NCBI GenBank assembly: GCA_029858205.1
Contig: JAOUFM010000003.1
Span: 210,936-274,935 of the forward strand
Length of the DNA stretch: 64,000 nt
Origin: Deltaproteobacteria bacterium
Lineage (GTDB): Bacteria > Desulfobacterota > GWC2-55-46 > DRQE01
Direction: 5' to 3'
Shown piece by piece: positions 471 to 24,161 of the stretch. The position numbers and the translations under genes are program-made. The notes beneath the pieces are model-generated. The model was not told the DNA's origin. It saw only the letters and a list, made by a program, of their open reading frames with translations, and made no database searches. Positions within the stretch are counted from its first letter, which is position 1; each line of letters begins with the position of its first letter.

Positions 471-569
471 GATATCATCCGCTCTCCAGAATCAAGAAAC
501 CCTTTTCGAAAACACCCTGTCACCGCAAACCTGACACAAATCATACGCATCACAAGCCCTTTTACAACC

Positions 570-1847: not shown

Positions 1848-1864
1848 CGTATACTTCGGATCAT

Positions 1865-4460: not shown

Positions 4461-4469
4461 CCGGTGGCG

Positions 4470-6249: not shown

Positions 6250-6264
6250 ACCACCCTTTTGTTT

Positions 6265-7065: not shown

Positions 7066-7080
7066 CTATACAATTCTCCT

Positions 7081-7802
7081 TTACTTTATAGCAAGGAACC
7101 CCTCGAAACAAACATATTTAAAAACCGTAATTACATCCACAAATCCGGCGCGCTTTAGCAAGTCGGCATTTCCCTGCGACGAAAACGGCTCCAGAACACC
7201 CTTTAAACTGCGCGCCTTGGACACTATTTCTTCGGCCGTATATCCCTGTCTGAGTTTATATTCATTATACAATCCGGTCATGATATCCTGAAACCGAGCA
7301 TCATTGGCTCTGACCTTTTCAAACAGAATAAAGGCCCCTCCCCAATTGAGGTTTTCATATATGCGGTTAAATATGTCCTGCCTTACGCGCGGCTTTACAA
7401 ACTGCAGTGTGTAGTAGGCCGTAAAGACATCGGCCTTCTCATAGTTATACTGGAATATATCGGCGGCCTCGAACTCGACATTTACAGCACTTGATTGTTT
7501 CTTCTTTTCCAGAGCCATCTTTATCATATCCGGCTCGATATCTATGCCTACGAACCTGGCCTCGGGCTTTGTGCTGTTATGCCGAGCGAGCTTCAGCGTC
7601 AACTCACCTGTCGATGTCCCGAGTTCATAGCATAAAGAATTTTTCCCGACAAAAAAATCGCTCAAATTACAGATCAACTCGTGCCCTTCGTTATAAAAGG
7701 GAACCGACCGCGAAACATGCTCATCGAAATTCTTGGCCACATCTCCTTTGAAGTTCCAGTTCGCATTGGCAGCCGTAAGACCGTCTCCGACACCGGACAT
7801 AT
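7081..7802 (-). CDS. CmoA-like class I SAM-dependent methyltransferase / carboxy-SAM-synthase-like enzyme. Start re-assigned to the ATG at 7802 behind a GAGAGGAGAGA Shine-Dalgarno; the 88-codon upstream extension in the ORF track is Arg-rich junk.
   Basis: 'NFDEHVSRSVPFYNEGHELI...CYELGTSTGELTLKL...GIDIEPDMIKMA...TLQFV' is colinear with E. coli CmoA ('[24 protein letters not shown]...'). Confidence 0.6.
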
Positions 7803-7906
7803 TATCTCTCCTCTCTGTCTTCTTTGATATTACACGCTCGCGCAACGGACCACAACAGCGCATTGTCTGCCGCCCTCGCGGTACAAAAACCCTTGCAACA
7901 TGTTTT

Positions 7907-8689
7907 TCACTTAAAGAAATCCGAGCCCAGAATATTATATTTGCCGAGCCTTTCCTCCTGCAATTCAAAGGTTGTAATATCGCCCTTTTTGTCCCAGATA
8001 ATTTCGTACTTTCTGGTAAAATTTCTCTCGAGAAACCGCGCGTTGTTCGTTCTGCCGTCAATTATTATAAAAGTGCCTGGCAGAAAAGTCGGCTCCATCA
8101 ACAGCAAGTCCGCAGACATGACAGTACGCTCATCGCACTGAAAACTCAATCCGTTTACCTGCCCCTGCACGTCCTTGGGCGTCGGTCCGTCTAGATAAAT
8201 AAAATCAGGCACTACATCGGGCAAATTTTTATAATAATGGCAAATTTGCCCGATGTGCGTTCCTATCACAACATCGCTTTGCTGCACATGAACCCTGTCG
8301 CGCAGGTCCTCCGGAATTTTGCCTTTCGTTTGCTCTATCCAATGCATGGACGCGTCGACCGAAAAGATTTTGAACATAAAACGATTTCGTACCTCGGGTT
8401 TGTCCGGCAAGGCATTCCATTCTATTTCGTTCTTCCTTAATGCATCGGCCATAACCATTGTCGAATATCCTATCCCGAACTCCAGCACAGTGAAACACTT
8501 GCGGCTCCTGACAAGTTTATGTAACCGGACCAGGTCCGCAACCTGTAGCGGGAAAGGAAGTATCCTCTTGCCGCTTACGGAATCATAGACATCTCTTTGC
8601 GCGTCGCCGCCCGCCTGGAAATCAATTAATCTATCCAGACCGTTTGCAACGATATATTCATTATCATCCATGTTTTTTCCCAAACTCAT
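7907..8689 (-). CDS. Class I SAM-dependent methyltransferase
   Basis: Motif I 'VLEFGIGYSTMVMA'; 260 aa; good RBS (GAGAGG) before the ATG. Confidence 0.5.
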   Translation of the reverse strand: MSLGKNMDDNEYIVANGLDRLIDFQAGGDAQRDVYDSVSGKRILPFPLQVADLVRLHKLVRSRKCFTVLEFGIGYSTMVMADALRKNEIEWNALPDKPEVRNRFMFKIFSVDASMHWIEQTKGKIPEDLRDRVHVQQSDVVIGTHIGQICHYYKNLPDVVPDFIYLDGPTPKDVQGQVNGLSFQCDERTVMSADLLLMEPTFLPGTFIIIDGRTNNARFLERNFTRKYEIIWDKKGDITTFELQEERLGKYNILGSDFFK

Positions 8690-8744
8690 TATTTGCCTCT
8701 CGATTGCCGTATTTATCTAAGCCAACGGCGCACATCGGCTTGTA

Positions 8745-9893
8745 TCACAAATATGCCAATCTTTTTTGGATATAAAGCACCACCTGTGATAATGCCGCAG
8801 CAATTTTCCCGCTGGCAGTACCGTCACCATACAGACTGCTGGGGGTAAATCCGCCCTTACCAAGCTGCTTTTTCACGGCCTCGAATATCAATGTGCGTTC
8901 AGGAGCAACAGGTAACACATTCTCCGCCACTTCGCGCCCGCCCTGCCTGTCCCCCACCAGCACGACCGGAGTTCCAAGAAAGGACGAATCCCGCACAAAA
9001 CTGCTGCTATTACCGATGGCGCACGAAGCATTTGCAAGCACCTTAAGGTAATTTTCCGGAGTAAAATTTTTTATCAAACGAAGCCACTTTGCCTCGCGTT
9101 GCTCACGAAAAGCGCGAATAACCTTGCTCACATGATCGGAGCCGGCATCAATATTAGGCCACAACCATACCGTCGGCATCTTAATCTCGCCCAATGCCGT
9201 AATAAGTTGCAACGTTTCGTCCTTTTCCATCCCATACTCGGTGGTAACCGGATGGAAAACCACCAGCAGATATTTATCCGTAGCTGCTATTTCCCCGCCA
9301 ACACCGCGCGCAAAGATATCGAACGGCAGCTCTTTATTAAGCTTTAATGCTATATCGCCGCTTGGACATCCGACAAAAAACACGGTTTCTGGCCTTTCAC
9401 CCATACTTTTCAAATGCTCGGCAGCCTTGCGCGTGGACGGGAAATGAAAATGCGCGAGTTTCGTAATGGCATGCCTTGCGCTCTCGTCTATAGATCCGCT
9501 GACCTCTCCCCCCTGTATATGCGCAATGCAAATATTCATATATGACGCGGCCAGAGCGGCGGCTAACGCTTCATACCTGTCGCCGATAATGAGAACAATA
9601 TCCGGACGAAGCCTCTGGAATTCGCTCGCGAATTCTATTACGGCAAAACCGAGCGACTTGGCCATCGTCAACGGCGTAGACCCTTCCAGTTCTATATATA
9701 TTTCACTGCTTACATCAAAACCATCGGTTCTGACAATATTTACGGGAGCTCCAAACCGCTCCAAGACCATCGTTCCGGCACATACAACTTGCAGGGCCAG
9801 ATCATCGTTACGTTTCACGGCCTCCATGACAGGCTTGAGCCTTCCATAATTGGCCCTATCAACCAAGATAACGGCAATTTTACGTTTATTCAT
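8745..9893 (-). CDS. neuC: UDP-N-acetylglucosamine 2-epimerase (hydrolysing), NeuC family
   Basis: 'KIAVILVDRANYGRLKPV...IGDRYEALAAALAASYMNICIAHIQGGEVSGSIDE' is typical of NeuC/SiaA. Confidence 0.8.
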   Translation of the reverse strand: MNKRKIAVILVDRANYGRLKPVMEAVKRNDDLALQVVCAGTMVLERFGAPVNIVRTDGFDVSSEIYIELEGSTPLTMAKSLGFAVIEFASEFQRLRPDIVLIIGDRYEALAAALAASYMNICIAHIQGGEVSGSIDESARHAITKLAHFHFPSTRKAAEHLKSMGERPETVFFVGCPSGDIALKLNKELPFDIFARGVGGEIAATDKYLLVVFHPVTTEYGMEKDETLQLITALGEIKMPTVWLWPNIDAGSDHVSKVIRAFREQREAKWLRLIKNFTPENYLKVLANASCAIGNSSSFVRDSSFLGTPVVLVGDRQGGREVAENVLPVAPERTLIFEAVKKQLGKGGFTPSSLYGDGTASGKIAAALSQVVLYIQKRLAYL

Positions 9894-9920
9894 ATAATAT
9901 CCGGCTCCACCTCGCTACAC

Positions 9921-10970
9921 TCATTTCAAGTCTTTAAGACTTATGAATTCGTCGGCACAAACGCAACGCTTAAGTTTTTTTCCATAAAGCTTTTTCAGCA
10001 TGCTTGCCGGTATGCCTATATTCGGCTTTTTAAGAATAAGATCTCCTTCTTCGAGAATTTTCCCTGCCGGAAGATCTGTTCTCGGCACGACACTTCTGCG
10101 AAATATTTCCCGTATCGTCTCAAGTTCTTTTGCCACAGAGTTTTTTTTAACTGGATTTAGCGCGGCTATTTCCAAAAATCTTACTCCCTTTGCCAATTGC
10201 GCCAACTCTTCCATGGTTACGGACGCTATCACGTCGGGGCCAAACATATGCCGCGACATCGTGACATGCACCTCGACAAACCTGGCGCCAAGCGCACAGG
10301 CGGCAAGCCCTGGGTAAATCGTCCCGGAATGGTCCGACAATCCGACCGGGCAACCAAACTGCCGGCTATACCCGGCAAGAACGTTAAGCCCGATTTTTTC
10401 CGGCGGAGTCGGGTACATCGTCGTCGCCTGGAATAAGGAAAAAACAGTTTTTTCCCTTTTTAAAAACGCGACAACTTTTTTTATTTCCCTGTCGGTGCTC
10501 ATGCCGGTAGAGATCAAAACCGGTTTTCGCGTGGCAACTATCCGTTCCAACATTGCCTCATTACCCAATTCTCCGGACCCTATTTTCCACGCGGCAATAC
10601 CTGCCTTTTGCAACAGATTTACGGCCTCTAACGAAAACGGCGAACTGAGAAAATGCAGTCCCTTGCTGCGCGCATACTTTGCCAAACCGCACCATTGCTC
10701 CGGCGTAAACTCCATCCTCTTCCAATAATCATATCTATTTCTGTCCTGCCTGCTAAACTTAACCCTAAACGGTTCATCCAACGTGCTTTCCGCATCGGCG
10801 ATATGGGTTTGGAACTTAATGGCATCCACGCCGGCCTCTGCCACGACATCTACGAATGCATACGCCTGACCGAGGCTCCCGTCGTGCGTTTGCGCGACCT
10901 CGGCAATCAAAAAACACGCCTTGCAGCCTCTTTCGAAATACTTCCCGATATTTTGCATTTTCCGCACCAC
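9921..10970 (-). CDS. neuB: N-acetylneuraminate (nonulosonic acid) synthase, NeuB family
   Basis: NeuB TIM-barrel motifs ('FLIAEVAQTHDGS', 'AGVDAIKFQTH') plus a C-terminal SAF domain. Confidence 0.85.
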   Translation of the reverse strand: MVRKMQNIGKYFERGCKACFLIAEVAQTHDGSLGQAYAFVDVVAEAGVDAIKFQTHIADAESTLDEPFRVKFSRQDRNRYDYWKRMEFTPEQWCGLAKYARSKGLHFLSSPFSLEAVNLLQKAGIAAWKIGSGELGNEAMLERIVATRKPVLISTGMSTDREIKKVVAFLKREKTVFSLFQATTMYPTPPEKIGLNVLAGYSRQFGCPVGLSDHSGTIYPGLAACALGARFVEVHVTMSRHMFGPDVIASVTMEELAQLAKGVRFLEIAALNPVKKNSVAKELETIREIFRRSVVPRTDLPAGKILEEGDLILKKPNIGIPASMLKKLYGKKLKRCVCADEFISLKDLK

Positions 10971-12257
10971 CTATACCACCTTTTGAGGCTGAGTCCAGAC
11001 ATAGGGCAATTTTACGGCACCAAGGCTATGGTATGACCAATTAACATTGGAATACCCCTTTGACGATGGCTCTATAGCGAAATCTAGCGCCGGCCTTATG
11101 CCGTCCTGCAAAGACGGCGCGTACATACTGAGCCAGGTAAAATATCTGCCGGGGCGCAAATAGTTCGGGGATATATCGAGCCCAAACTTGTACATTCCAG
11201 GCGCCATGACAGCCTCCATCACATCTGACAGAACCGCAAACACCTTTGCGTCCATCGAATCAAGTACCCCGAAATGTATTTCCAAAAGATCCAACTGTTG
11301 CCTCACTTCAACATAGATATCTATATGTATCGATTCTTCCTCTTCATACTGTGACCGCGCTTTGCCAATCTTATCCGAGCAAATGGCTTTTACAAAAACC
11401 GCCTTGGCGGTTTTGGGATTTACTTTATGCAAAGGTCTTTCCAAAAGCCTTAAATCATATACGCCATCCTCCCTCGCAGACAGGCCGCAGCCGGAAGGAT
11501 CTTTAACATAATGTTCTATCACTTCATGCGTTACCCCGGACATAGTCACAACGCCTTTAGTAAGCTCTATGCATCTCGTCGTGAGAGATGCTACCGCGCT
11601 CATGTTATGGCTTACAAAAAGGACGGTCCGCCCCCCCTCTGCCACCTCACCCATCTTACCAAGACATTTCTTCTGAAATCCGGCATCACCGACGGCAAGA
11701 ACTTCATCAACTACCAGTATCTCCGGCTCAAGATGCGCAGCAACTGCAAAGGCCAAACGCACATACATGCCGCTCGAATACCGTTTAACAGGCGTATCGA
11801 GAAACTTCTCTATCTCCGAGAACGCCACTATCTCGTCAAACTTGCTTTTTATCTCAGCCCTCGTCATTCCAAGAAGAGCGCCGTTTAAAAGTATATTTTC
11901 CCTTCCGGTAAGTTCCGGATGAAAACCCGTGCCGACCTCGAGAAGGCTCGCAACGCGCCCCTTCATCGTAATACGGCCGGACGTGGGCTCAGTTATCCTC
12001 GAAAGTATTTTCAAGAGCGTACTTTTACCTGCGCCGTTACGGCCTATAATACCTACAACCTCTCCTTCCTTTACGTTGAAGGAAACGTCCTTCAACGCCC
12101 AAACGATATTATCTTCTTCCTTTTTAGGAGCGCCAAAATTCTTGAACGGCGCAGTCAACGTCTGTACTATTTCATCGCGAAGGCTACCGTAAGCCATCCT
12201 TTCGCCGATCCTGTATTGTTTAGATATATTTCTTACTTCTATTATATTCTTAGACAT
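10971..12257 (-). CDS. wzt: Polysaccharide ABC exporter ATP-binding protein Wzt, with a C-terminal extension
   Basis: Walker A 'GIIGRNGAGKSTLL', ABC signature 'YSSGM', Walker B 'ILVVDE'. An extra C-terminal domain of about 170 aa follows the nucleotide-binding domain. Confidence 0.85.
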   Translation of the reverse strand: MSKNIIEVRNISKQYRIGERMAYGSLRDEIVQTLTAPFKNFGAPKKEEDNIVWALKDVSFNVKEGEVVGIIGRNGAGKSTLLKILSRITEPTSGRITMKGRVASLLEVGTGFHPELTGRENILLNGALLGMTRAEIKSKFDEIVAFSEIEKFLDTPVKRYSSGMYVRLAFAVAAHLEPEILVVDEVLAVGDAGFQKKCLGKMGEVAEGGRTVLFVSHNMSAVASLTTRCIELTKGVVTMSGVTHEVIEHYVKDPSGCGLSAREDGVYDLRLLERPLHKVNPKTAKAVFVKAICSDKIGKARSQYEEEESIHIDIYVEVRQQLDLLEIHFGVLDSMDAKVFAVLSDVMEAVMAPGMYKFGLDISPNYLRPGRYFTWLSMYAPSLQDGIRPALDFAIEPSSKGYSNVNWSYHSLGAVKLPYVWTQPQKVV

Positions 12258-12264
12258 ACTCGTA

Positions 12265-13089
12265 TCAGACCACGTCCGAGAAATAACGCTCTACGCGGCG
12301 GAAATAAAAAACACCGCTTACAAAAACCGCAAAACCGCATACGGCAGACACAGCCAGAGATGCCCAAGGAATATCCACATGACCCAGAACAGCAGCCCGG
12401 ATTGCCTCTATGACACCGGACATCGGGTTTAGCATCAATATCATCTTATACTTTTCCGATAAAAGACCTGCCGGATAAATAACCGGGGTCACGAACATCC
12501 ATATCTGCACGAAAAACGGTATTGCATACTGAATATCCCTGTACCTTACGTTTAGCGCCGAAAACCAAAGCCCGAACCCAACAGCATTCATCATGACGAA
12601 AGACATCAATATCGGCACAAGAAAAATTCCCAAACCAGGCTTTACGCCGTAATAAACCATTATCGCGCCAAACACGAGCGCCGAGATAAAGAAATCCAGA
12701 AACACGGACACGGCGGAACTCGCAGGCATGATGATTCGCGGAAAATATATTTTTGTTATAAGATTTTTTTCAGAAACGACACTGCTGGTAGATTGCGTAA
12801 GCACTGCAGCAAAGTACTGCCACGGTAAAAGACCGGCATACACGAAAACCGGGTACGGTACGCCCTCCGATGGCATCCCCGCGAACCTGCCGAAAATTAC
12901 CGAAAAAACGACCATGGTCAGCACCGGCTGCAGCACGGCCCACACTATGCCGATAACAGCCTGCTTATACTTTACCTTTACATCCCTCCACGCAAGAAAA
13001 TACAAAAGCTCCCTGTACTTCCATATCTCGCGAAGGTCGACCGGTATAAACCCTTTTCTGGGTTCTATGACAGTAACATTATCAGCCAT
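12265..13089 (-). CDS. wzm: ABC-2 type polysaccharide exporter permease Wzm
   Basis: About six predicted transmembrane helices, 274 aa; adjacent to and translationally coupled with wzt. Confidence 0.8.
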   Translation of the reverse strand: MADNVTVIEPRKGFIPVDLREIWKYRELLYFLAWRDVKVKYKQAVIGIVWAVLQPVLTMVVFSVIFGRFAGMPSEGVPYPVFVYAGLLPWQYFAAVLTQSTSSVVSEKNLITKIYFPRIIMPASSAVSVFLDFFISALVFGAIMVYYGVKPGLGIFLVPILMSFVMMNAVGFGLWFSALNVRYRDIQYAIPFFVQIWMFVTPVIYPAGLLSEKYKMILMLNPMSGVIEAIRAAVLGHVDIPWASLAVSAVCGFAVFVSGVFYFRRVERYFSDVV

Positions 13090-13092
13090 AAA

Positions 13093-14034
<942 letters not shown>

Positions 14035-15171
14035 TTAACCTACCGTCAATTTACTATCTGTCCAGGCTATGCCTTTTTTGGCGAGTATCTTTCTGCCTTC
14101 ACCCTTTGAATCGACACCTGCGGCCTCAAGGTCATAATCCACCATTATCTTGACCAGATCCTTGAATGTTATCTCAGGGGTCCACCCGAGTTCCTTTTTG
14201 GCCTTTCTTATGTCAGCCTTAAGCACATCGACCTCTGTAGGCCTTAAATAACGGGGATCGAGCTCTATGATTGCGTATCCCGGCTTTAGACCGTCGGCAA
14301 TGCCTTTTTTAAGAGACTTTATTACTCCCTTTTCCTTAATGCCCTTGCCCTTCCATTCGATCTCTATTCCCGCATATTCGAATGCATGGTTCAAAAAGTC
14401 CCTTACCGACCTTGTATCGCCCGTGCCTATTACAAAATCCCCGGGCTTATCGTGCTGAAGGATGCGCCACTGGCATTCGACGTATTCGGGCGCAAACCCC
14501 CAGTCCCTTTTTGCGTCGAGGTTGCCAAGGTAAAGCTTTTTTTGCTTACCCGCGACTATCGCGGCAAGGGCGCGCGTGATTTTGCGCGTAACAAAAGTCT
14601 CGCCCCTTCTTGGAGATTCGTGGTTAAAAAGTATCCCGTTCGAGGCGAACATGCGGTAGCCTTCGCGGTAGTTTACGGTCATCCAGTACGAGTACACCTT
14701 TGCCGCGGCGTAAGGGCTCTGCGGCCGAAATACCGTTTTCTCGCTTTGCGGAGGAAGCGCGCTCCCAAACATTTCACTCGAAGACGCCTGATAAAAACGC
14801 GCAGGCACTCCGCTTCTCCTGACTGCCTCGAGAAGGCGTGTTGTGCCAAGTCCGGTGATGTCGCCTGTGTATTCGGGTATATCGAAACTCACGCGAACGT
14901 GGCTCTGGGCGCCGAGATGATAAATCTCGTTTGGCGCAATATTGTAAACCAGATTAACGAGCTGTCCCGAGTCCGAAAGGTCTCCGTAGTGAAGTAAAAG
15001 TTTTGTCCCCGGCAGGTGACGGTCCTTATATATATGATCTATCCTGTGGGTATTGAAGGTACTGGCGCGCCGTATTATGCCGTGCACCTCGTAGCCCTTG
15101 CTTAAGAGAAGTTCGGCAAGGTAGCTTCCGTCCTGCCCTGTTATTCCCGTTATAAGCGCGCGCTTTCCCAT
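14035..15171 (-). CDS. gmd: GDP-mannose 4,6-dehydratase
   Basis: '[33 protein letters not shown]' is the canonical Gmd N-terminus. Confidence 0.9.
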
Positions 15172-15172
15172 T

Positions 15173-15874
15173 CTATTCTCCCGGATTGTTTTTTATTATA
15201 GTAGGCCTCTCGGCCCAGCGTTTCTTATCGACAAAAACGGTGTTAACGAACGTATCGCCGCAGACGATATATCCATTACGCTCCATCACCTTGAATATTT
15301 CATCGTTCTTCCTGTTCTCGTTATAATAAACGGTCTCTATGCAAAACACCTCGGGTCTGTACTTCTTGAAATCGAAACTCTCGAGTATCTCGACCTCGAG
15401 GCCTTCGACGTCAATGGTTACAAGGTTCGGGCATTTATCGAAATATTTTTCGATTATCCCGTTTATGGGCACGACATTTATCTTCAACACCTTCGGCTCG
15501 CCGCTGCCAATACTCTTGTAACGCTCCATGGTTTCCCTGCTGCAGGTGCTAAGTGTTGTGCCGCCCGGTATAACGTAAAAATCAATGACCCCTGCCTTTG
15601 CCGCAACGCCGACATTAAGATTAACGTCCCTTCTTCTCTTAAAACCGAACTTGGCGAAAAGCTCCGGGTCTGGCTCCACGTTCACGCCCTTGCATCCGTT
15701 CTTGTAAAAATAGTACGTGTTACTGAACTTAACGGGGTCGTGCGCGCCGACATCAAGATAAGTGGGTTTACGTATCTTTAACGCCCTCAAGATGAAATCC
15801 GCAAGCACGTCCTCGCCTGCCTGGGCGTAAGATCTCTTATAATCTCTTTTGAATATATTCCTTATGAATTTCAT
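15173..15874 (-). CDS. FkbM-family methyltransferase
   Basis: '[16 protein letters not shown]' motif. Confidence 0.7.
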
Positions 15875-15891
15875 CTCATTGAACTCCGGCC

Positions 15892-17217
15892 CTACGCCGG
15901 CACCACCTTTTTGCTTTTAAATTTCCTTGCCGCGCCTCTTGCATCCACCACTATCTTGCTGTTAACAGCTATCATCTTATAGTCGTAACACGTATGGTCC
16001 GTGGATATGACGACGCAATCGTATTTCTTTAACGCCGCGGGGGTAAGTTTCACGGACTTAAGTTCGATTGCATGGTGCCGCATCCTCGGCATCTTCGGCA
16101 CATAGGGGTCGTTATAATCCACCTTTGCGCCAAGCCCCTTTAGCATTTCTATGATATGCACGGAAGGAGACTCCCTCATGTCATCCACATCTTTTTTATA
16201 CGCCGCTCCGAGCACAAGGATACGCGAGCCTTTGACGGACTTGCCTTCCTTGTTTAGCGCTGTACCGACCTTCCCAATGACATAAGAAGGCATGGAGGTG
16301 TTTATCTCCCCGGCAAGCTCTATAAAGCGCGTTGCGAACTCGTACTCCTTCGCCTTCCACGTAAGGTAAAACGGGTCTATGGGAATGCAATGCCCGCCAA
16401 GGCCCGGGCCCGGATAAAAGGCCTGGAACCCGAAGGGCTTGGTCTTCGAGGCATCGATGACCTCCCATATGTCAATGCCCATCTTATCGGTAAGCATCTT
16501 AAGCTCGTTTACAAGCGCTATATTGACGCAGCGATATATATTCTCGAGAAGCTTTGTCATCTCTGCCGCGCGCGTGGTAGAGACCTCTACCACCTTATCT
16601 ATAATCTGCGAGTACAACAGACTGCCCGCTGCCAGACAATCCTTTGTAACACCGCCAACCACCTTGGGAATCGTCTTTGTCGAAAAATCCTTTCTCCCCG
16701 GATCTTCCCTTTCGGGCGAGAATACAAGGAAGTAATCTTTGCCGACACGAAGCCCTGTTTTTTCGAATTCCGTAAGAAGTATTTCGTCGGTTGTTCCGGG
16801 ATAAGTAGTGGACTCAAGAGAAACAAGCTGGCCTATTCTAAGGCGCTCCACTATCTCCTTTGTCGTACCGACAACATAGCTCATATCCGGCTCGCGCATC
16901 TTACCCAGCGGCGTAGGCACGCATATGATGACCGCATCCGGCTCCTTAAGCCTGTTCATGTCAGCGGTCGCGGCAAACTTCTTTCCCTTGACATGTTTTG
17001 CGATATCCCCTGCGGCTATGTGCTTTATGTAAGACCTTCCGGCATTGAGCGCCTTTACTTTGGACGAGTCAACATCGAACCCGAGCACCCTGAAGCCTTC
17101 GTCGCAGAACCTGAGTACCAGCGGCAACCCGACATAACCAAGCCCGATAACGCCTATGAGCGCGCTTCGTTTTTCTATTTTTTCAAGCAGTTTTTCTTTT
17201 ACGATATTTTTCGCCAT
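15892..17217 (-). CDS. Nucleotide-sugar dehydrogenase (UDP-GlcNAc/ManNAc 6-dehydrogenase family, WbpA/TviB-like)
   Basis: '[13 protein letters not shown]' Rossmann motif, catalytic 'GGHCIPID', 441 aa. Confidence 0.75.
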
Positions 17218-17253
17218 AGCACCTCATTTAAAGCCGTTTCTCAGGATTTTTTC

Positions 17254-17919
17254 TCAAACCTGTCCTTTTTTGCTGATGTCTATGATCCGTGCCTGAACAA
17301 CCCCTGCCTCTATCAATGCCTTCGAAAGTTCCGCGCTTCTATAAAACGAAGTTATTACTATGGCCTCGGCTGCGCCGTCCCTGAGCTTTTCAATACCGAC
17401 AACCGGCATATCGAAAAACTTTTCGGTTCTTTCGATATCCGAAATGCAGACAAGCTCCAACCCGGCCTCCTTTAAAGACAGATACGCTATCTCGGCAACC
17501 TCATCTACGCCGCAGAAAGCGACTCTGCTTATGCCAAGCTCCTTCAACCTTGCAAACAGTTCAGCGAAATCCGTCCTCGCAACCCTGTAGAGGTTGGTAA
17601 AATTCCTCAGATGTTCGTAGGTGAGACGGGTCTTTTCAAGAAAACCATTTGGCGTAAGATAATATTTGTAGCGCTTTGCGGGAATACCGGAGACTGTTAT
17701 GTAACCTTTTGAAATGAGATTCTTTATGTAGGAATTTATGAGTCCCAGCGCAATACCGAGGTTTTTGCTTATTTCACGCTGGGTTAGGTCGCCGTTTCGC
17801 GATATCTCGTCAAGCACGAGAAGCGAACGGTACCCATCCATATGGCCGTTTTTATCCTCGCTGTTCATACTATGAACATACCATTTAATCAGGCATTTTG
17901 TCAAGTAAAACGCGTTCAT
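17254..17919 (-). CDS. Winged-helix transcriptional regulator with a C-terminal Rossmann-like domain. It is the last gene before the glycan cluster and divergent from the novel cassette.
   Basis: 'LDEISRNGDLTQREISKNLGIALGLINSYIKNLISKGYITV' wHTH. The real start is possibly the internal Met at 17868. Confidence 0.45.
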   Translation of the reverse strand: MNAFYLTKCLIKWYVHSMNSEDKNGHMDGYRSLLVLDEISRNGDLTQREISKNLGIALGLINSYIKNLISKGYITVSGIPAKRYKYYLTPNGFLEKTRLTYEHLRNFTNLYRVARTDFAELFARLKELGISRVAFCGVDEVAEIAYLSLKEAGLELVCISDIERTEKFFDMPVVGIEKLRDGAAEAIVITSFYRSAELSKALIEAGVVQARIIDISKKGQV

Positions 17920-18050
17920 GCAATGAACTGGCCGCGCGCAAAAAATTAGTAATTTACATTTGCCGGGGTTTTATTGTATGGTATATTACTTAAAATTCCC
18001 CGTGCTGTTTTATTAAAAAATATTCCAACTTCGCTATCTGAAAAGTAAAT

Positions 18051-18080
18051 TTGGCCATGCCAGTCTTTTTATGCTACAAT
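18051..18080 (+). promoter_or_regulatory. Candidate sigma-70 promoter for the 5-gene cassette: -35 TTGGCC (18051-56), 18-nt spacer, extended -10 TGcTACAAT (18072-80).
   Basis: Read directly from the sequence, about 22 nt upstream of the ATG at 18103; the leader is short with a weak SD. Confidence 0.3.
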
Positions 18081-18102
18081 AAAAGATACGGGTATATCCA
18101 AC

Positions 18103-20238
18103 ATGAATGCCAGAGATTTTGAAAAAGAGATAAAAATCCACATCGAAGCGCGCTACCCCATTTTGTGGCTCGTATCGTTCGAAGAGCGCCGGGTCGAGCG
18201 CATCGTCGAAAACCTCTGCAATACCAACGGGTTCAAGTTCTGGACATGGTCCGTGTCAAAAGGGCTCTACGGTAGCGACAAAAAAAAGAAAGAGCCCGTT
18301 GGCAGGGAAAAAATCCTTACCTCCATTGAGGAAAAGATAGTAAAGAACGAGGAAATCAATAACTTCTTCCTTTTAAAGGACATTGCCGGGTATTTCCAAT
18401 CCCACGAGTTCCTAAGAAAGTTTCGCGACATCCCGGGCACCATCGAGGACTATCGCTCGCTTAACACCGTCTGCATCCTCTCGCCAACACTTAGCGAGAT
18501 TCCGCCGGAGCTCGAAGAAGACATCGTGGTAATCGAGCTTAGCCTGCCCGAGTACGACGAAATCGAGGAGATGGTAAACACGAACTTTTCCAAATACATC
18601 CCCGCGTCGTGGCATTCGTCTACGAGGTCGGTTCTCTACAAATCGCTACAGGGCCTTTCTCTAGATAACATCAAAAGGGTCGTAAGAAAGGCAATCAGCC
18701 TGAATAGAGGCGTGCTGAACGAAGAATGCATCAAGTACATACAGGACGAGAAGCAGCAAATCATAAAAAAGCAGCAGATACTCGATTACTACCCCTACAG
18801 GGAAACTATCGACCACATCGGCGGCCTCGATGAAATAAAAAAATGGTTCGTCGAGAGAGAGCATGTCTTCCGTTTAAGCAAGGGCAAAATCGAAACTCTC
18901 GGCCTTGACGTTCCAAAAGGCCTCATGCTAATTGGCGTTCCGGGCTCCGGGAAAAGCCTCTGCTGCAAGGCCCTTGCCGGCATCTGGAACCTTCCGCTTC
19001 TAAGAATGGACGTAGGCCGTCTCTTTGGCTCGACAGTCGGAGAGTCCGAGAAAAATATTCGTAAGGCCATACAGCTTGCAGAGGCGGTAAGCCCCTGCAT
19101 AATGTGGATCGACGAGATAGACAAGGCATTCGGCGGAATATCCGGTTTCCAGGGGGATTCGGGCACGCAGCTAAGGGTGTTTGGCACCTTCATCACATGG
19201 CTGCAGGAAAAGGACAAACCCGTCTTTGTCATAGCAACTGCCAACGACCCGAAAAACCTTCCTCCCGAGCTATGGAGAAAAGGCCGCTACGACGAAGTGT
19301 TCTTCGTCGATCTTCCAAGCGCCGAGGAAAGAGACGAAATATTCAAGATACACCTCGAAAGAAGAGGACAAAAACCGTCGAACTTCCGCTTAAAGGAACT
19401 CTCGCAGAACTCGCAGGGCTACACGGGCGCCGAGATAGAGCAGGCCATAAAGGACGCGGTCGTTGCCACATTCAACACTCTGCACGAGGGAAAAGAAGCA
19501 AAAGAGGCCGACGCAATAATAGACGGCACCTTAACCCTCTCACTCGACACGGCAACGCTTCTCGAAGCGATACGGCACATAACGCCGCTCTCGGTTCTGA
19601 AAAAAGAGGAGATCGAGGCGCTTCGCGAATGGAGCCAGCAAAGGGCGCGGCCCGCATCGAAGTCTCTCTTCATGCAGCGCGCAGAGATGCTCTCTGACGC
19701 GGAAAAGCGCACTATCGCCATACACGAGGCCGGACATATAATAATGATGTGGCATCACTTCAATGGCACGCCGGTCTTCGTGAGCATAGATAACTACAAG
19801 GACACCTCTGCATTCACCGGCAAGAGCGAAAGCCTCGTAAACACACTTACCAAGCGCGACCTGGAAAAGGAAATCGGCGTGATGCTTGGCGGCATGGTGG
19901 CCGAAGACGAGGTCGGCGGAGCGGACTCGAAAACTGTTGGCGCCTCGCACGACCTTAGCGACGCAACGGCCAAGGCAAGAAGAATGGTCGTGGAATACGG
20001 CTTTGGCGACATAATGAAGAACACGAGCCTTGTAGAGCTCCAGGAATACGCCATGATGTCCGGGAAAGACATTCTCGAGGACATACAGAAGATAATCCAC
20101 GGCGCAAAGGAAGAGACCGAGTCCGTCATTTCGAAGAACAAAGCGCTTCTCGAAAAGCTCGCGGACAAGCTCGTGGCGGAGATACTCGTAAACGGCGAGG
20201 GATTAAGGAATTTCCTTACGCAGCACAATCTGGAATAA
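18103..20238 (+). CDS. Soluble FtsH-like AAA+ ATPase-zinc metalloprotease (Ycf46-like N-domain + AAA + peptidase M41), no transmembrane anchor
   Basis: Walker A 'GVPGSGKS', Walker B 'IMWIDEID', sensor-1 'ATANDP', Arg-finger region 'RKGRYDEV', 'HEAGH' zinc motif and downstream 'GASHDLSDATAKARRMVVEYGFG' (FtsH 'GASNDIERATEIARKMV'). The N-terminal ~240 aa ('ARYPILWLVSFEERRVERIV') are non-membrane. Confidence 0.8.
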   Translation: MNARDFEKEIKIHIEARYPILWLVSFEERRVERIVENLCNTNGFKFWTWSVSKGLYGSDKKKKEPVGREKILTSIEEKIVKNEEINNFFLLKDIAGYFQSHEFLRKFRDIPGTIEDYRSLNTVCILSPTLSEIPPELEEDIVVIELSLPEYDEIEEMVNTNFSKYIPASWHSSTRSVLYKSLQGLSLDNIKRVVRKAISLNRGVLNEECIKYIQDEKQQIIKKQQILDYYPYRETIDHIGGLDEIKKWFVEREHVFRLSKGKIETLGLDVPKGLMLIGVPGSGKSLCCKALAGIWNLPLLRMDVGRLFGSTVGESEKNIRKAIQLAEAVSPCIMWIDEIDKAFGGISGFQGDSGTQLRVFGTFITWLQEKDKPVFVIATANDPKNLPPELWRKGRYDEVFFVDLPSAEERDEIFKIHLERRGQKPSNFRLKELSQNSQGYTGAEIEQAIKDAVVATFNTLHEGKEAKEADAIIDGTLTLSLDTATLLEAIRHITPLSVLKKEEIEALREWSQQRARPASKSLFMQRAEMLSDAEKRTIAIHEAGHIIMMWHHFNGTPVFVSIDNYKDTSAFTGKSESLVNTLTKRDLEKEIGVMLGGMVAEDEVGGADSKTVGASHDLSDATAKARRMVVEYGFGDIMKNTSLVELQEYAMMSGKDILEDIQKIIHGAKEETESVISKNKALLEKLADKLVAEILVNGEGLRNFLTQHNLE

Positions 20239-20248
20239 GGGCCCCGCT

Positions 20249-20587
20249 ATGTCGTTTTTCACAAAGCTCAACACCGAACTCAAAAACAAACAGTACGTGC
20301 TCGCTGCCATAGCCGCCCTTAAGCAGACAGGCGAGATAAAGAACTACGCCATAAACGAAAAGAAGGAAAGCGTCGAAATAAACCGCGCCGGCGACATTAT
20401 ACAGGTAGTAAAAACAAAGACCGGCGAGTACGAACTGCAGGGAGACGCAAGAGTGGTAAGCGCCTTCTCGAGCAGGCTAAAGCAGCTCTACGCGTACGAG
20501 GCAATCAAAGACAACATGCCGCTGGACTTCGAGATAGCCGAAGAGATAGAAACCGCCGGAGAGATCCGCATCGTGCTTAAAGGCTAA
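20249..20587 (+). CDS. Small conserved hypothetical protein (112 aa), possibly DUF1257/Ycf35-like
   Basis: Sits 10 nt after the protease gene. It is charged, Lys/Glu-rich and cysteine-free. The family assignment is from memory only. Confidence 0.4.
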   Translation: MSFFTKLNTELKNKQYVLAAIAALKQTGEIKNYAINEKKESVEINRAGDIIQVVKTKTGEYELQGDARVVSAFSSRLKQLYAYEAIKDNMPLDFEIAEEIETAGEIRIVLKG

Positions 20588-20589: not shown

Positions 20590-20775
20590 ATGGGTAAAGA
20601 GATAAAAATAAAGATAACACCCGACGGCAAGGTCGAGATAGATTCGACCGTGTTCAAGGACTGTAAAGAGGTGGCCGAACACCTATCGAAGGTCATAGGA
20701 AAGGTCGAGGTCTTCACCATAAAAGAAGAACACGAGCGCGAAGAAAAACTTCGCATAAAAAAAGGCGACAAATAA
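20590..20775 (+). CDS. Small hypothetical protein (61 aa), possibly DUF2997-like
   Basis: Begins 2 nt after the previous stop (translational coupling). 'KIKITPDGKVEIDSTVFKDCKEVAEHL...' with a Lys/Glu-rich tail. Confidence 0.35.
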   Translation: MGKEIKIKITPDGKVEIDSTVFKDCKEVAEHLSKVIGKVEVFTIKEEHEREEKLRIKKGDK

Positions 20776-20779: not shown

Positions 20780-21364
20780 ATGGCATCGTCGATATTCATA
20801 GACACGCACGCGATAATCGAGAGGTCGCGTGTAAACGGCCCAGGACAGAGGCTGGTGGTCTTTTTCCAGGGCTGTCACAGGAACTGTCCTGGCTGCTTCA
20901 ATCCGGCAACGCACTCAATCGGCACTGGCGTCAAATACGGCATACGGGAGATATTCGCGCGTTTCCTCTCTAAAAACGTAAGCGGCTTAACTGTTAGCGG
21001 AGGTGAGCCGTTTCTGCAAAGCGCGGCGCTCTGTGAACTGCTTAAAACCGCAAAACGCGAACACGGCCTTACGACCGCCGTGTACACGGGATTCACGATA
21101 GAGGAAATACGTTCATCAACGGAGCTTAGCCCTGCGCTCGAGCACATAGACGTGCTCATAGACGGGGCGTTCGACGAAAACAACACAGAAAGGACAACTC
21201 TTGCAAGAGGTTCCACAAACCAGCGCCTTCACTTTCTCTCCGGCGTTTATTCGATAGATGATTTTATTTTGCCAGGCAAAGCGGAGATAATAATCAACAA
21301 GGACGGTTCGGTGGTAGAGACCGGATTTTCGAAGCCGGCGGGAATAAACTCCATCCTCTTGTAA
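20780..21364 (+). CDS. NrdG-family radical-SAM activase (glycyl-radical-enzyme activating protein-like, single 4Fe-4S cluster)
   Basis: 'VNGPGQRLVVFFQGCHRNCPGCFNPATH' (CX3CX2C), 'GLTVSGGEPF', 'AVYTGFTIEEI', 'VLIDGAFDEN...RGSTNQRLHFL' are colinear with E. coli NrdG. Confidence 0.75.
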   Translation: MASSIFIDTHAIIERSRVNGPGQRLVVFFQGCHRNCPGCFNPATHSIGTGVKYGIREIFARFLSKNVSGLTVSGGEPFLQSAALCELLKTAKREHGLTTAVYTGFTIEEIRSSTELSPALEHIDVLIDGAFDENNTERTTLARGSTNQRLHFLSGVYSIDDFILPGKAEIIINKDGSVVETGFSKPAGINSILL

Positions 21365-21377: not shown

Positions 21378-24161
21378 ATGACGATAGAGAACTTCTTCAG
21401 GGACAATTCCGGCATAGCGCGCACAAGCGCAGTTGAGCAGCGCGACGCGGCGCTAAAATACCTGCGCTCGCTGCCAGAGTCTAGCGACAGGGCCGAGGAC
21501 TTCAAATCGGCGTACGCGTACATACGAAACATCAGCGACGCCGAAGAAATGCGAAACGCACTCATCGAGCTTGCCATCACGATGCCAAAGCACGGCCCGT
21601 GCATGGACCTGTTTAAAGAAGTGTTCCCCGGCGCCATCAACTCCACAGACGCCATACCCGAGCCCATACACCGCAAATCAACGCTTACGCGCCTTGTAGA
21701 CTGCGTGCCCGACAAACCGGAGTACGCCGAGGCATACGCGCGCGTCGTGGAAAAATACATCGAGGCCGCAGACAAGATAGACGACCGCTTTGCGCGGCGC
21801 TACGCGCTTGCGGAAATTGCATCGAGACTCAAACACAGGGACGAATACGAAGCCCTCATGCTCCATGCCATGAAGGTGAGCCTCGGGTTTGCCGGCCTTC
21901 CGGGCTTTAGGCAATACTCGCTTCCCGAGATAGCAAGGGAACTTCCGAAAAGCTGCGACGTGGAGGTCTACAGAAACCACACATTCCTCGGGCTTGCGTT
22001 CTCGCTGCCGCACAGGGGCGAGTTCCTCGAACTCTTCAAAAAGGCCCTGACCACGGCCATCGAGTCAACGGAGCACATCGTTGAGCCGTATTACAAGAAA
22101 TACGCCCTTCTCTTCATGGCCAACAGGCTGCCCGAGACAGCAGAGTTTTTACCGCTAAGAAAGAGCGCTTTCAGGGCCGCCCTTGCCTCGGTCGACACGC
22201 TCGCCGACAGCTTCGCCAGGCAGTACGGATATAACGAATTCCTAAAGGACGTGCCAAAGACGCGCGAATTCTCCGACATACTGCTCGATACGGTCGAGAA
22301 GAGCCTTCCGTTCTTTTCTCTAAGAAGCCAGATGTCGGACTACGAGCCCATAGAGATACTCGACCGGATACTGATCGTCGCGGACAAAAAAATATCGGAT
22401 TCGAAGAAAAAACATTACACCCGCTTCCATTACGCCGATTTTTTCCTGAAACAGCTGAACCTGATAGCCGATAACTTAAACGATGTGCGCCTTCTGGAAA
22501 TTCTAAGGCCCTACACGCACGTATGGGTAAGGCCAAAAACTTTCAGGGACTCGATACGCAAGGTGTTCGACAAGGTCTCGTCCTTAAAAGGCAGATACCA
22601 CGGCGCCGAAGTAGAGCGTCCACTTTATGTCAGCGAGGCATGCCTCGGCATAGACAAACGAAGCCGCACGGCATCCGTTATGGCGGATACGCGCGAAGGC
22701 TACGCGCTCTCGATAGACCTTGGCGCCACCAATACCGTTGTAATGCTTAAAAAACCCGGGGCATTCCCGGAATTCGTCAACATAGAAGGATTATCCGAAA
22801 CCATCGGAAGCGTTGCCTTCATAAGCACGGCAGTAGACAAGAACAACGACTTGATAGGCGCTGCGGCGCCGGCCCAGTCGCGCTCGAACAACATAAAAAA
22901 ACTGTTCATGGAAGGCGACGAAGAGGGGCGCGAGCTCATCGAGAAGTTTTTCCGCATCCTGTACTCCAGAATAAAGGAATCTGTCGAGGTGCCCGGGTTT
23001 TTCAAGAAACTTTCCGGCAGGATTTTCGATACCGTTTCCGTGACAGTGCCGGTCGGGTATACGGATTACAGCGGCGAACTTACCAGAATCATCGAAAAAT
23101 ACGCGGGCAGCGCGCGCATAAAGCTCGTGGAAGAGCCGCTTGCTGCGGCGATAGGCTATAACGTGGCGGAGAAAAAGGAAAAATTCGTCCTTGTTCTCGA
23201 CTTTGGCGGCTGCACGCTCGACCCGATGCTTTTAAGGCTCTCTACCGACATGACACACGTCATAGCAAAGCCCGACAGATCCAAGATGCTTGGCGGGCGC
23301 GACATAGACCGCTGGGTGGCCGAGTACGTGAACGAAAAGCATAACCTTAGGACCAACCCTTCGGGGCACGAGGCCCTGACTGCGGCAGAGGCGCTGAAAA
23401 TAGAACTTAGCGCCAAAAACTCGGCGAAGTTCGTGTTTGGCGGCCGCGATATCGCGGAACTTACGCGCATAGAGTTCGAGGAGCTTCTCTCGCGCAGAGG
23501 GTTCTACAGCGACATAGACAGGGAACTTTCGAACGTGCTAAAAAAGGCTTCGAAGCTCGGCGTTTATAAATCCATGATAGAGGCCGTCATCATAACCGGG
23601 GGCTCTTCGCAGATACCGTCGTTCAAGGAAAAGATATCTCACTACTTCCACAACCTGGCCGTGCAAAACGCGATATACGACCACAGCCCGCTGTCGTCGG
23701 TCGCAAGGGGCGCGGCCCTCTACGGCACGGCCTCGGTGCTGGACCGCCACCTGGCCATGGCGTACGCAATAAAGCACATTGCAAGGGAAGAGGAAAAACA
23801 GTTTGCCTACGAAATCGTACTCGAAAAGGGCGAATCGCTTCCGTTCAAAAAGACCTTGCGCTTTACTCCTGCCATGACGCTCGGTGGACAGAAGGAAATA
23901 TTTCTCGAACTCTTCGAGGTGCCCGATTCCCTTATCGTACGGCGCTGGATATCCGAGGGCGGCATGGAGTTCATAAAGCAAATACTTAAGCACACGCCCG
24001 ACGAACTCGATCTGAGGGCTTTCAAGACCGTCACGCTTTCATTCGACGCTCCTATAGAAGGAAGCACAGACATCACATTTATAGTGGAAGAGAACGGACG
24101 ATTGAAGGTGCGCTACGAAAAAGACGGCCGCGAACTTGCAACCGACATACACCTTCAGTAA
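21378..24161 (+). CDS. Large Hsp70/actin-fold ATPase with a ~430-aa N-terminal alpha-helical repeat domain
   Basis: Hsp70 phosphate-1 'IDLGATNTVV', phosphate-2 'VLDFGGCTLDPML', adenosine motif 'VIITGGSSQIPSF', 'LVEEPLAAAIGY'; 927 aa. Confidence 0.75.
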   Translation: MTIENFFRDNSGIARTSAVEQRDAALKYLRSLPESSDRAEDFKSAYAYIRNISDAEEMRNALIELAITMPKHGPCMDLFKEVFPGAINSTDAIPEPIHRKSTLTRLVDCVPDKPEYAEAYARVVEKYIEAADKIDDRFARRYALAEIASRLKHRDEYEALMLHAMKVSLGFAGLPGFRQYSLPEIARELPKSCDVEVYRNHTFLGLAFSLPHRGEFLELFKKALTTAIESTEHIVEPYYKKYALLFMANRLPETAEFLPLRKSAFRAALASVDTLADSFARQYGYNEFLKDVPKTREFSDILLDTVEKSLPFFSLRSQMSDYEPIEILDRILIVADKKISDSKKKHYTRFHYADFFLKQLNLIADNLNDVRLLEILRPYTHVWVRPKTFRDSIRKVFDKVSSLKGRYHGAEVERPLYVSEACLGIDKRSRTASVMADTREGYALSIDLGATNTVVMLKKPGAFPEFVNIEGLSETIGSVAFISTAVDKNNDLIGAAAPAQSRSNNIKKLFMEGDEEGRELIEKFFRILYSRIKESVEVPGFFKKLSGRIFDTVSVTVPVGYTDYSGELTRIIEKYAGSARIKLVEEPLAAAIGYNVAEKKEKFVLVLDFGGCTLDPMLLRLSTDMTHVIAKPDRSKMLGGRDIDRWVAEYVNEKHNLRTNPSGHEALTAAEALKIELSAKNSAKFVFGGRDIAELTRIEFEELLSRRGFYSDIDRELSNVLKKASKLGVYKSMIEAVIITGGSSQIPSFKEKISHYFHNLAVQNAIYDHSPLSSVARGAALYGTASVLDRHLAMAYAIKHIAREEEKQFAYEIVLEKGESLPFKKTLRFTPAMTLGGQKEIFLELFEVPDSLIVRRWISEGGMEFIKQILKHTPDELDLRAFKTVTLSFDAPIEGSTDITFIVEENGRLKVRYEKDGRELATDIHLQ

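Follow-up and report, generated by a model that had tools for sequence, protein, structure and literature searches.

A Ycf46-type AAA protein with an appended M41 peptidase domain and no membrane anchor, encoded in a conserved five-gene operon

Proteases of family M41, FtsH among them, are textbook membrane-anchored enzymes. Ycf46 and Ycf35 are encoded by open reading frames that plastids and cyanobacteria conserve, ycf46 coding for an AAA protein of about 490-500 residues. In Synechococcus elongatus, Ycf46 (Synpcc7942_0417) is described as a KaiC-interacting AAA ATPase encoded in a stress-induced three-gene operon, and the phenotypes reported for Ycf46 concern circadian timing, the uptake of carbon and shutdown under stress (bioRxiv 10.1101/2025.07.21.665879). 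The plastids of freshwater red algae have lost ycf35 and ycf46 jointly, and ycf34 and pbsA with them (PMC5940233). In cyanobacteria a DUF2997-ycf35-fed7 cluster is conserved, and Fed7, a [4Fe-4S] ferredoxin, binds a DnaJ-like protein (PMC4284462). We found no biochemical function of Ycf46 or Ycf35 reported in the literature. Tandem AAA modules, an inactive one followed by an active 'FtsH-type' one, have been described in the MoxR-vWA ternary conflict systems, some of which also include a radical S-adenosylmethionine (SAM) protein and a small peptide or effector gene (PMC7159879). Here we describe a gene that joins a Ycf46-type protein to an M41 peptidase domain. It lies at 18103..20238 (+ strand) of a 64,000-nucleotide stretch of a Deltaproteobacteria bacterium genome (assembly GCA_029858205.1, contig JAOUFM010000003.1, positions 210,936 to 274,935 of the forward strand; hereafter the window) and is the first gene of a five-gene operon. 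Our literature search found no account of a soluble or transmembrane (TM)-less FtsH, of a Ycf46-M41 protease or of this five-gene set, and none of the papers found that mention DUF1257 or DUF2997 addresses the five-gene module.

The fusion gene is a single uninterrupted open reading frame (ORF) encoding 711 residues, and an identical protein is recorded as 'MAG: AAA family ATPase [Deltaproteobacteria bacterium]'. Pfam finds an AAA domain at residues 274-403 (E = 6e-30) and Peptidase_M41 at residues 529-699 (E = 1.8e-19, 70.8 bits against a cutoff of 29.9). Residues 6-522 align with residues 3-493 of a 493-residue chloroplast-encoded protein of Aureococcus anophagefferens at 37% identity (E = 6e-105), tail included. 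By homology, the protein is thus a complete Ycf46-type protein (residues 1-522) with an appended M41 domain, and it is this domain, at residues 529-711, that sets it apart from the stand-alone Ycf46 architecture.

In a phmmer search with residues 1-240 against 1.84 billion representative sequences, 1246 proteins reached E 1e-3 or better, most of them 490-540 residues long with the domain at the N-terminus followed by one AAA domain. Two of the matched clusters hold the A. anophagefferens chloroplast protein and a Cryptomonas protein. The best non-orthologous matches in GTDB were around 40% identical over residues 5-520; their sources are Planctomycetota, Sumerlaeota and Armatimonadota, together with dozens of cyanobacteria. 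The initial annotation, which had called the N-terminal region Ycf46-like, is supported by these matches, plastid and cyanobacterial proteins being among them. The name 'Ycf46' itself rests on the S. elongatus preprint (bioRxiv 10.1101/2025.07.21.665879), a JGI label and the size of the ycf46 product, an AAA protein of about 490-500 residues; no retrieved record names a match 'ycf46'.

The same annotation had pictured an FtsH whose TM region was swapped for a soluble domain, a description that the alignments do not bear out. The protein scores 173.1 bits against TIGR01241, the FtsH_fam equivalog, where the cutoff is 600, and 119.7 bits against NF008004, where it is 1008. The best match of its AAA module in the PDB is the D2 domain of Cdc48/p97 (98 bits), at least as good as FtsH. 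Because residues 1-522, AAA module and tail alike, are of Ycf46 type and the FtsH score is far under its cutoff, the event is better described as a Ycf46 protein having gained an M41 domain.

The N-terminal domain (residues 1-232, 18103..18798, + strand) was modelled with AlphaFold2 from a 74-sequence alignment with a predicted local distance difference test score (pLDDT) of 89 and a predicted template modelling score (pTM) of 0.82. The model has a beta-alpha-beta core with a helical lid. It would leave no room for a P-loop, since the strand at residues 20-24 is followed by just three residues before the helix at 28-42. Residues E27, E28, R30, W49, D93, R105, R108, P149 and G184 are invariant in the family. 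On the evidence of the model and its structural neighbours, the domain is a predicted degenerate AAA+ module, or pseudo-ATPase, and the whole protein would therefore be a tandem AAA protein (an inactive module, then an active one) followed by M41. This replaces the earlier proposal of a substrate-binding domain standing in for the membrane region. Recruitment of substrates through the N-domain, as suggested in the initial annotation, is no more plausible than recruitment by DUF1257 and DUF2997, the conserved neighbours, as adaptors.

No membrane anchor was found. The highest Kyte-Doolittle mean over 19 residues is 1.17 and falls in the Walker A strand; the maximum does not exceed 1.51 across the 120 best orthologues, where it always lies within the AAA core, and reaches 1.31 in a divergent fusion, P0142. 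The two TM helices of E. coli FtsH, used solely as a control, give about 2.3. Pfam likewise finds no FtsH_ext (extracellular) domain, so that neither the two TM helices nor the extracytoplasmic domain of the FtsH-type anchor is present. The absence of a TM segment had been noted in the initial annotation, and the N-terminal helix pair that would contradict it was not seen. An ordinary FtsH deprived of its anchor by a mis-called start, an assembly error or a recent truncation was considered and rejected, and we give this explanation almost no credence. It would account for the order of AAA and M41 only. The start is the first start codon past an upstream in-frame stop, and hence no N-terminal extension of the ORF is possible; the same N-terminus (MN..DFEKEI) is found in more than 120 orthologues from independent assemblies; and the first 240 residues are a predicted folded domain homologous to Ycf46 in a protein far below the FtsH equivalog cutoff.

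The active classical-clade AAA module with its lid spans residues 233-457 (18799..19473, + strand), as judged by Pfam, PDB matches and alignments. It contains Walker A GVPGSGKS (residues 278-285, 18934-18957), pore loop 1 FGSTVG (F308-G313, 19024-19041), Walker B WIDEID (residues 335-340, 19105-19122), sensor-1 N381 (within 19234-19245) and the arginines R392 and R395 of the second region of homology (SRH; within 19273-19296), all on the + strand. It is followed by a Ycf46-type tail (ITPLS...W...RARPAS; residues 458-528, 19474..19686, + strand), which aligns with the C-terminus of the 493-residue plastid protein, is kept in the Ycf46-like consensus and would act here as a linker to the peptidase. 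The M41 zinc peptidase domain (residues 529-711, 19687..20235, + strand), delimited by Pfam and by alignments to Yme1 (6AZ0) and Thermotoga maritima FtsH (3KDS/2CE7), carries HEAGH (residues 541-545, 19723-19737), E601 (within 19897-19911) and the zinc-site D617 in GASHD (within 19939-19953), again on the + strand.

Conservation of these residues was assessed in an alignment of twelve relatives, namely eleven orthologues of the same clade (71-76% identical) and the outlier P0142 (36%). Invariant in all are G281, G283, K284 and S285 of Walker A, D337 and E338 of Walker B, N381, R392 and R395, as well as H541, E542, H545, E601 and D617. Each of the 120 orthologues examined keeps Walker A and B, sensor-1, both SRH arginines, the HExxH motif and the Asp that follows it. 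In E. coli FtsH, T. maritima FtsH and Yme1, the sequences aligned with HEAGH and GASHD are HEAGH and GA(S/A)ND, and P0142 has HEASH and GSSND. The zinc triad expected from the initial annotation therefore survives careful alignment. Its statement that the ATPase and zinc motifs look intact is correct for Walker A and B, the SRH arginines, HEAGH and the Asp ligand; pore loop 1 and one position of the SRH depart from the canonical pattern. Pore loop 1 of FtsH needs an aromatic residue, F228. Here the loop reads F-G-S-T-V-G, the aromatic being missing at the canonical position, with STV in 115 of the 120 orthologues, whereas Ycf46-like proteins mostly have S-L-V-G. In the SRH, the equivalent of FtsH D307 is a proline (LPPEL).

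Taken together, the conserved catalytic motifs fit what is probably an active, soluble, ATP-dependent zinc protease. A different reading holds that M41 is a structural relic and that the protein is only an unfoldase or chaperone, its peptidase ring serving as a hexamerisation platform as in the plastid FtsHi proteins. The non-canonical pore loop and SRH, the divergence of the M41 domain and the presence of FtsHi proteins among the structural neighbours speak for it, but FtsHi pseudo-proteases have lost zinc-site residues, while HExxH, E601 and the Asp persist in every orthologue examined and in P0142. We regard a relic as very improbable.

Orthologues of the fusion form more than 120 clusters at 90% identity, all of about 711 residues and 71-77% identical, and are found in at least 17 GTDB species under the labels Deltaproteobacteria, Thermodesulfobacteriota, Desulfuromonadales or 'Nitrospirae' metagenome-assembled genomes. 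Pfam was run on 17 of the 22 proteins of at least 600 residues among the 150 best N-domain representatives and on the two best matches of about 500 residues; among these scanned proteins M41 occurred in P0142 only. The fusion clade's own representative (P0121, 712 residues) can be aligned from end to end, with 71% identity. P0142, which is 36% identical to the fusion protein, proved on searching with it to be a singleton; its contig is 4 kb long. A tblastn search of 72,556 plasmids and 50,697 phages returned no match to the fusion protein at 80% coverage or more. The expectation that such a fusion would be uncommon is thus borne out, one clade and one divergent singleton having been found. The number of clusters, their identity and fixed length and the retention of the zinc motifs in P0142 suggest that the clade is under purifying selection.

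The pseudo-AAA and AAA modules also occur fused to other partners: a complete Lon protease (S16), a trypsin-like peptidase, Ser/Thr kinases, SIR2-like (SIR2_2) and EAD7 domains (P0168, P0180, P0156/P0191, P0240/P0259 and P0265). Fusions to three unrelated peptidase families, M41, Lon and trypsin-like, favour a role as an unfoldase for proteolysis. The EAD7, SIR2-like and similar fusions link part of the Ycf46-like family to conflict systems, and they raise the reading that the five-gene unit is an anti-phage or abortive-infection system, in which Ycf46-M41 would be a regulated proteolytic effector or a thresholding chaperone. Fusion of the N-domain and AAA module to SIR2_2, EAD7, protein kinase and trypsin-like domains is consistent with this, as is the tandem of inactive and active FtsH-type AAA modules, some accompanied by a radical SAM protein and a peptide effector, in the described conflict systems (PMC7159879). 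The AAA domain also gives weak IetA matches in PADLOC and NCBIfam. On the other side, the operon and the genes next to it include no MoxR, vWA, IetS or other known effector, p112 and p61 (the products of its second and third genes) have no PADLOC match, and the IteA score is 102 bits against a cutoff of 510. PADLOC run on the operon gave no system-level match; the AAA core matched IetA, and there was a weak pVip match. We hold a conflict system to be unlikely here; further evidence that bears on it comes from the relatives considered below.

Two observations concern the wider family. Inteins often split Ycf46-like genes, interrupting the AAA domain in P0135, P0141, P0162, P0226, P0229 and P0237, several of them with a LAGLIDADG endonuclease. 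Roseofilum halophilum (locus L047) carries two Ycf46-like paralogues, at 9992-11491 (+) and 15887-17467 (-), about 4.4 kb apart and in opposite orientation.

The operon comprises, in order, the Ycf46-M41 gene, a DUF1257/Ycf35-like gene (p112), a DUF2997 gene (p61), an NrdG-like radical SAM gene and an Hsp70-like gene, separated by gaps of 2-13 nucleotides. This order is kept in 13 of the 13 orthologous loci that extend far enough, and the flanking genes vary between loci. At one orthologous locus (L008) the DUF2997 and radical SAM genes are separated by some 2.6 kb of inserted sequence, at 7566-10173, that holds three ORFs. On the short contig of P0142, an NrdG-like gene (36% identical) stands directly 3' of the fusion gene.

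The second gene (20249..20587, + strand) encodes p112, which we assign on sequence comparison to a divergent branch of the DUF1257 (Ycf35) family. It falls below the gathering score of Pfam PF06868 (15.8 against 22.2 bits), but hhalign aligns it with PGAP-named DUF1257 proteins at 95.6% (E = 1e-8) over 111 of 112 columns, and phrog_20456 is matched both by p112 (E = 8e-9) and by a named DUF1257 protein. Its AlphaFold2 model has a TBP/KA1-like alpha+beta fold. The family counts 269 database proteins, the 120 listed being unnamed or 'hypothetical', and the C-terminus always reads ...L(K/R)G before the stop codon. The third gene (20590..20775, + strand) encodes p61, a small protein with one invariant Cys. 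It matches Pfam PF11211 below threshold (E = 5.7e-4, 20.1 against 24.1 bits), and hhalign pairs it with Planctomycetota DUF2997 proteins, which themselves score 50-52 bits in Pfam, at 94.7% (E = 6e-8). These comparisons identify p61 as a DUF2997 protein.

The fourth gene (20780..21364, + strand) encodes a 194-residue NrdG-like radical SAM or '4Fe-4S single cluster' protein (Pfam Fer4_12, E = 6.6e-34). It has the CX3CX2C motif (CHRNCPGC, residues 32-39, within the pattern GCxxxCPGCFN) and GGEP at residues 74-77. It matches TIGR02491 (NrdG) over nearly its full length at 117.3 bits, just under the cutoff of 126.1, and phrog_626, 'anaerobic ribonucleotide reductase small subunit', at 114 bits. 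Its C-terminal hairpin, EIIINKDGSVVETGF (21284-21328, residues 169-183), resembles the N-terminal DUF2997 motif of p61, IKIKITPDGKVEIDS (20599-20643, residues 4-18). Versions of the hairpin in Treponema, Bacillus cereus and Paenarthrobacter proteins read EIIINPDGIVTTTGF, EIRLHPDGTISANGM and HVRIGPDGTADVAGF, respectively. The hairpins of the two operon proteins may dock on one surface.

The fifth gene (21378..24161, + strand) encodes a 927-residue Hsp70-like ATPase, recognised by Pfam, NCBIfam and PDB matches. Its domain order is non-canonical, with some 430 alpha-helical residues containing repeats ahead of a nucleotide-binding domain (NBD, about residues 440-785) and a C-terminal domain. The NBD has DLGATNT at 447 (phosphate-1), DFGGCTLD at 608 (phosphate-2) and GGSSQIP at 741 (adenosine), and matches the NBDs of BiP and DnaK in the PDB at about E = 1e-18. 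The protein is under the equivalog cutoffs for both HscA, its best NCBIfam match (100 against 620 bits), and DnaK (83 against 648 bits). Residues 1-441 match no Pfam family; at about residues 130-310 (21765-22307) there are at least four repeats of some 20-40 residues with the core 'Y-x-L-x-x-I-A-x-x-L-P-x-x-x-E-F'. In every sufficiently long orthologous locus the Hsp70-like gene stands 3' of the radical SAM gene.

These two partners suggest another function for the operon, namely a machine for the maturation, repair or quality control of a radical or iron-sulphur (Fe-S) enzyme, in which the radical SAM protein would install or restore a radical or cofactor on a client encoded elsewhere, the Hsp70-like protein and the AAA ring would open it, and M41 would remove damaged, for example oxygen-cleaved, copies. 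The near full-length likeness of the fourth protein to NrdG, with its GCxxxCPGCFN and GGEP motifs, and its phrog_626 match are in keeping with this idea, and the same radical SAM subfamily adjoins Ycf46-like AAA genes in four phyla. A theme of Fe-S proteins with Hsp70 recurs, seen also in the cyanobacterial cluster of DUF2997 and ycf35 with fed7, whose product binds a DnaJ-like protein (PMC4284462), and HscA is the best NCBIfam match of the Hsp70-like protein. The HscA score, however, is barely above that for DnaK, the operon has no glycyl-radical enzyme or motif, ten further window ORFs that were scanned gave no match to NrdD or a glycyl-radical family, and the whole idea is drawn from gene neighbourhood. 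We consider it improbable.

A core of Ycf46-type AAA, DUF1257 and DUF2997 genes recurs in other lineages, in many cases beside a gene of the same radical SAM subfamily and in some with Hsp70 or GrpE. At all ten Planctomycetota loci the gene order, as far as each contig extends, is PflX-like radical SAM, Ycf46-like AAA, TM-anchored DUF1257-like and DUF2997. The DUF1257-like partner there has an N-terminal hydrophobic helix, MSTVLILTPIVIGGWPAITAAAAGA... (loci L021, L022, L026, L030, L033, L038 and L059), and the Planctomycetota module may for this reason be membrane-tethered through its small partner. Compared by hhalign, p112 and these TM-anchored proteins reach a probability of 9%. Single-sequence phmmer searches gave no match at E 1e-3 or better to p112, p61, the radical SAM protein or the Hsp70-like protein in the cyanobacterial, Sumerlaeota and Armatimonadota Ycf46-like loci, and at the one Synechococcus locus inspected directly no small-protein partner lies beside the Ycf46-like gene.

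Core gene sets were also found on plasmids of four phyla. Paenarthrobacter plasmid pC has, in order, an AAA gene, genes for a 141-residue protein, DUF2997 and a hypothetical protein, and one for a '4Fe-4S single cluster domain' protein; a B. cereus plasmid has an Fe-S protein gene, two further genes, AAA and DUF2997; and a Treponema succinifaciens plasmid has an Fe-S protein gene and then AAA. Pseudanabaena plasmid pPg_01 carries GrpE, Hsp70, DUF1257, two genes, DUF2997 and AAA, and on Geminocystis and Planktothrix plasmids no more than about 2 kb separates DUF1257 and DUF2997 from the AAA gene. The set in Rhizobium phage RHph_I4 consists of an ATPase, a hypothetical protein, DUF1257 and DUF2997. 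Over their full length the plasmid Fe-S proteins are homologous to the window radical SAM protein (80-107 bits), whose C-terminal hairpin they share, and such full-length homologues adjoin Ycf46-like AAA genes at locus L084 and in Treponema, B. cereus and Paenarthrobacter. On the T. succinifaciens plasmid (L087, 6524-8575) a 'phage baseplate assembly protein V' gene follows the Fe-S/AAA pair, a hint that some members of the family operate in a setting related to phages or tailocins.

The occurrence of Ycf46-like, DUF2997/DUF1257 and Fe-S gene sets on plasmids near toxin-antitoxin, integrase and transposase genes, and of one set in a phage, is a further point for a role in conflict. Set against it, the fusion clade keeps about 70-77% identity, a fixed length and a fixed gene order in at least 17 species, a pattern unlike that of defence genes, which evolve fast and are patchily distributed, and the neighbours identified in the window are exopolysaccharide-type and ordinary chromosomal genes. 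High conservation, fixed synteny and such neighbours therefore disfavour defence in the fusion lineage, and the plasmid and phage relatives keep defence an option for the wider Ycf46-like family.

We think it likely that the fusion protein is a soluble, active, self-compartmentalising ATP-dependent zinc protease working in a dedicated multi-protein module. By analogy with FtsH and type-II AAA+ proteins, six subunits would form three stacked rings, of pseudo-AAA, AAA and peptidase domains. Powered by ATP hydrolysis, the active AAA ring would pull a client through its pore and into the M41 chamber for cleavage at the HEAGH/D617 zinc site, the pseudo-AAA ring supplying surfaces for assembly and docking. 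Most likely the operon would then be an adaptor-guided module for cytosolic protein remodelling and degradation, with p112 and p61 as putative adaptors or regulators and the radical SAM and Hsp70-like proteins preparing or delivering the client. Several points count against this proposal. Pore loop 1, S-T-V-G, has no aromatic residue, and the grip on substrate may thus be weak or unusual; the equivalent of FtsH D307 is Pro, as it is in all Ycf46-like proteins; and the M41 domain is divergent, at 70.8 bits in Pfam and with E-values of 1e-16 to 1e-9 in the PDB. We infer the roles of the four partners from gene neighbourhood, and hexamer formation and ring stacking are likewise presumed. Finally, the glycyl-radical motif ([STIV]xR[IVT][CSA]G[YWF], and a looser expression) is absent from all five operon proteins.

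A bolder proposal is that the operon is a radical-SAM-coupled proteolysis machine which would reveal the general job of Ycf46, Ycf35 and perhaps DUF2997. The NrdG-like enzyme would chemically mark or activate the DUF1257 or DUF2997 protein, or a client, and the Hsp70-like ATPase would pass that protein on to the Ycf46-M41 ring, which would unfold and cleave it. Since the peptidase is fused here, this lineage would be the one to expose what the set does in general. If true, the Ycf46/Ycf35(/DUF2997) set of plastids, cyanobacteria, plasmids and phages would pair an unfoldase with an adaptor and feed proteolysis, serving Fe-S or redox-stress proteostasis. We consider this a long shot. If the system is instead a lineage-specific proteostasis accessory, the gain would be a new subfamily annotation.

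In its own right, a natural, conserved and predicted soluble M41 protease with a tandem AAA stack would be a new architecture for the M41 family, and one tractable for structural work because detergent would not be needed. The M41, Lon and trypsin-like fusions provide Rosetta-stone evidence that Ycf46-type ATPases may be unfoldases feeding proteolysis. The neighbourhood of DUF1257, DUF2997, the NrdG-like subfamily and Hsp70 defines a candidate multi-protein system, and the fusion is a testable clue to, and a biochemical handle on, the function of the Ycf46/Ycf35 family.

Around the operon, promoter and terminator scans gave weak consensus matches. The upstream intergenic region (17920..18102, + strand) has weak sigma-70-like promoter matches to consensus at 17953-18080, and an Rfam scan of it found no riboswitch or leader, returning a chance miRNA match alone. 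Divergent from the operon, a long run of minus-strand ORFs (1-17919) ends with a UDP-glucose/GDP-mannose dehydrogenase-like gene (15892-17217, - strand), judged by eye, and a MarR_EPS-type regulator (17254-17919, - strand). Of the neighbours identified, those upstream are of exopolysaccharide type and those downstream are ordinary chromosomal genes. Elsewhere in the window are a homologue of NFACT/RqcH-type ribosome quality-control proteins (42921-44354, +) and a YacP-like NYN nuclease (35934-36440, +).

Among known systems, the FtsH, i-AAA and m-AAA proteases (MEROPS M41) share with the fusion protein a classical-clade AAA domain followed in cis by M41, with HExxH and Asp in register, and presumably also ATP-driven threading into a hexameric peptidase chamber. 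The fusion protein differs in lacking TM helices and an extracytoplasmic domain, in its extra N-terminal pseudo-AAA module, in a pore loop of STVG where FtsH has FVG, in the absence of the DGF inter-subunit motif, in the Pro at D307 and in the 70-residue Ycf46 tail between lid and peptidase. To the plastid and cyanobacterial Ycf46 proteins of about 493-500 residues it is collinear over residues 1-522 at 37-41% identity, sharing the degenerate N-terminal AAA module, the GDSGT..RVFGxFxxWxQEK motif and the C-terminal tail, as well as a genetic linkage to a Ycf35/DUF1257 homologue (PMC5940233). What distinguishes it from Ycf46 is the added M41, a pore loop of STVG where SLVG is usual, and its hosts, which are non-photosynthetic, uncultivated Thermodesulfobacteriota-type bacteria.

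Compared by description, the 'FtsH-type' component of the MoxR-vWA systems resembles it in having tandem AAA modules of which the first is without a P-loop (PMC7159879), and EAD7-fused members do exist in the family of Ycf46-like N-domain and AAA proteins; however, Pfam finds neither MoxR nor vWA among the five operon proteins, and M41 is not described in those systems (PMC7159879). With IetA of the IetAS system the likeness, by PADLOC and NCBIfam, covers residues 260-478 and is confined to the generic AAA core; the IteA score of 102.1 bits is far from its cutoff, and the operon encodes no IetS subtilase (peptidase S8). The operon radical SAM protein differs from NrdG in its extra C-terminal hairpin, common only to copies linked to Ycf46-like AAA genes, and in having no adjacent NrdD. 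Lastly, type-II AAA+ unfoldases whose first ring is weak or inactive and which feed a protease (Cdc48/VAT-20S, ClpA/ClpC-ClpP), and Lon, resemble the predicted assembly in stacking AAA tiers above a proteolytic chamber, and the AAA module of the fusion protein is indeed closest to Cdc48/p97 D2, whereas its protease is fused in cis, belongs to family M41 and would sit beneath a first tier without any nucleotide site.

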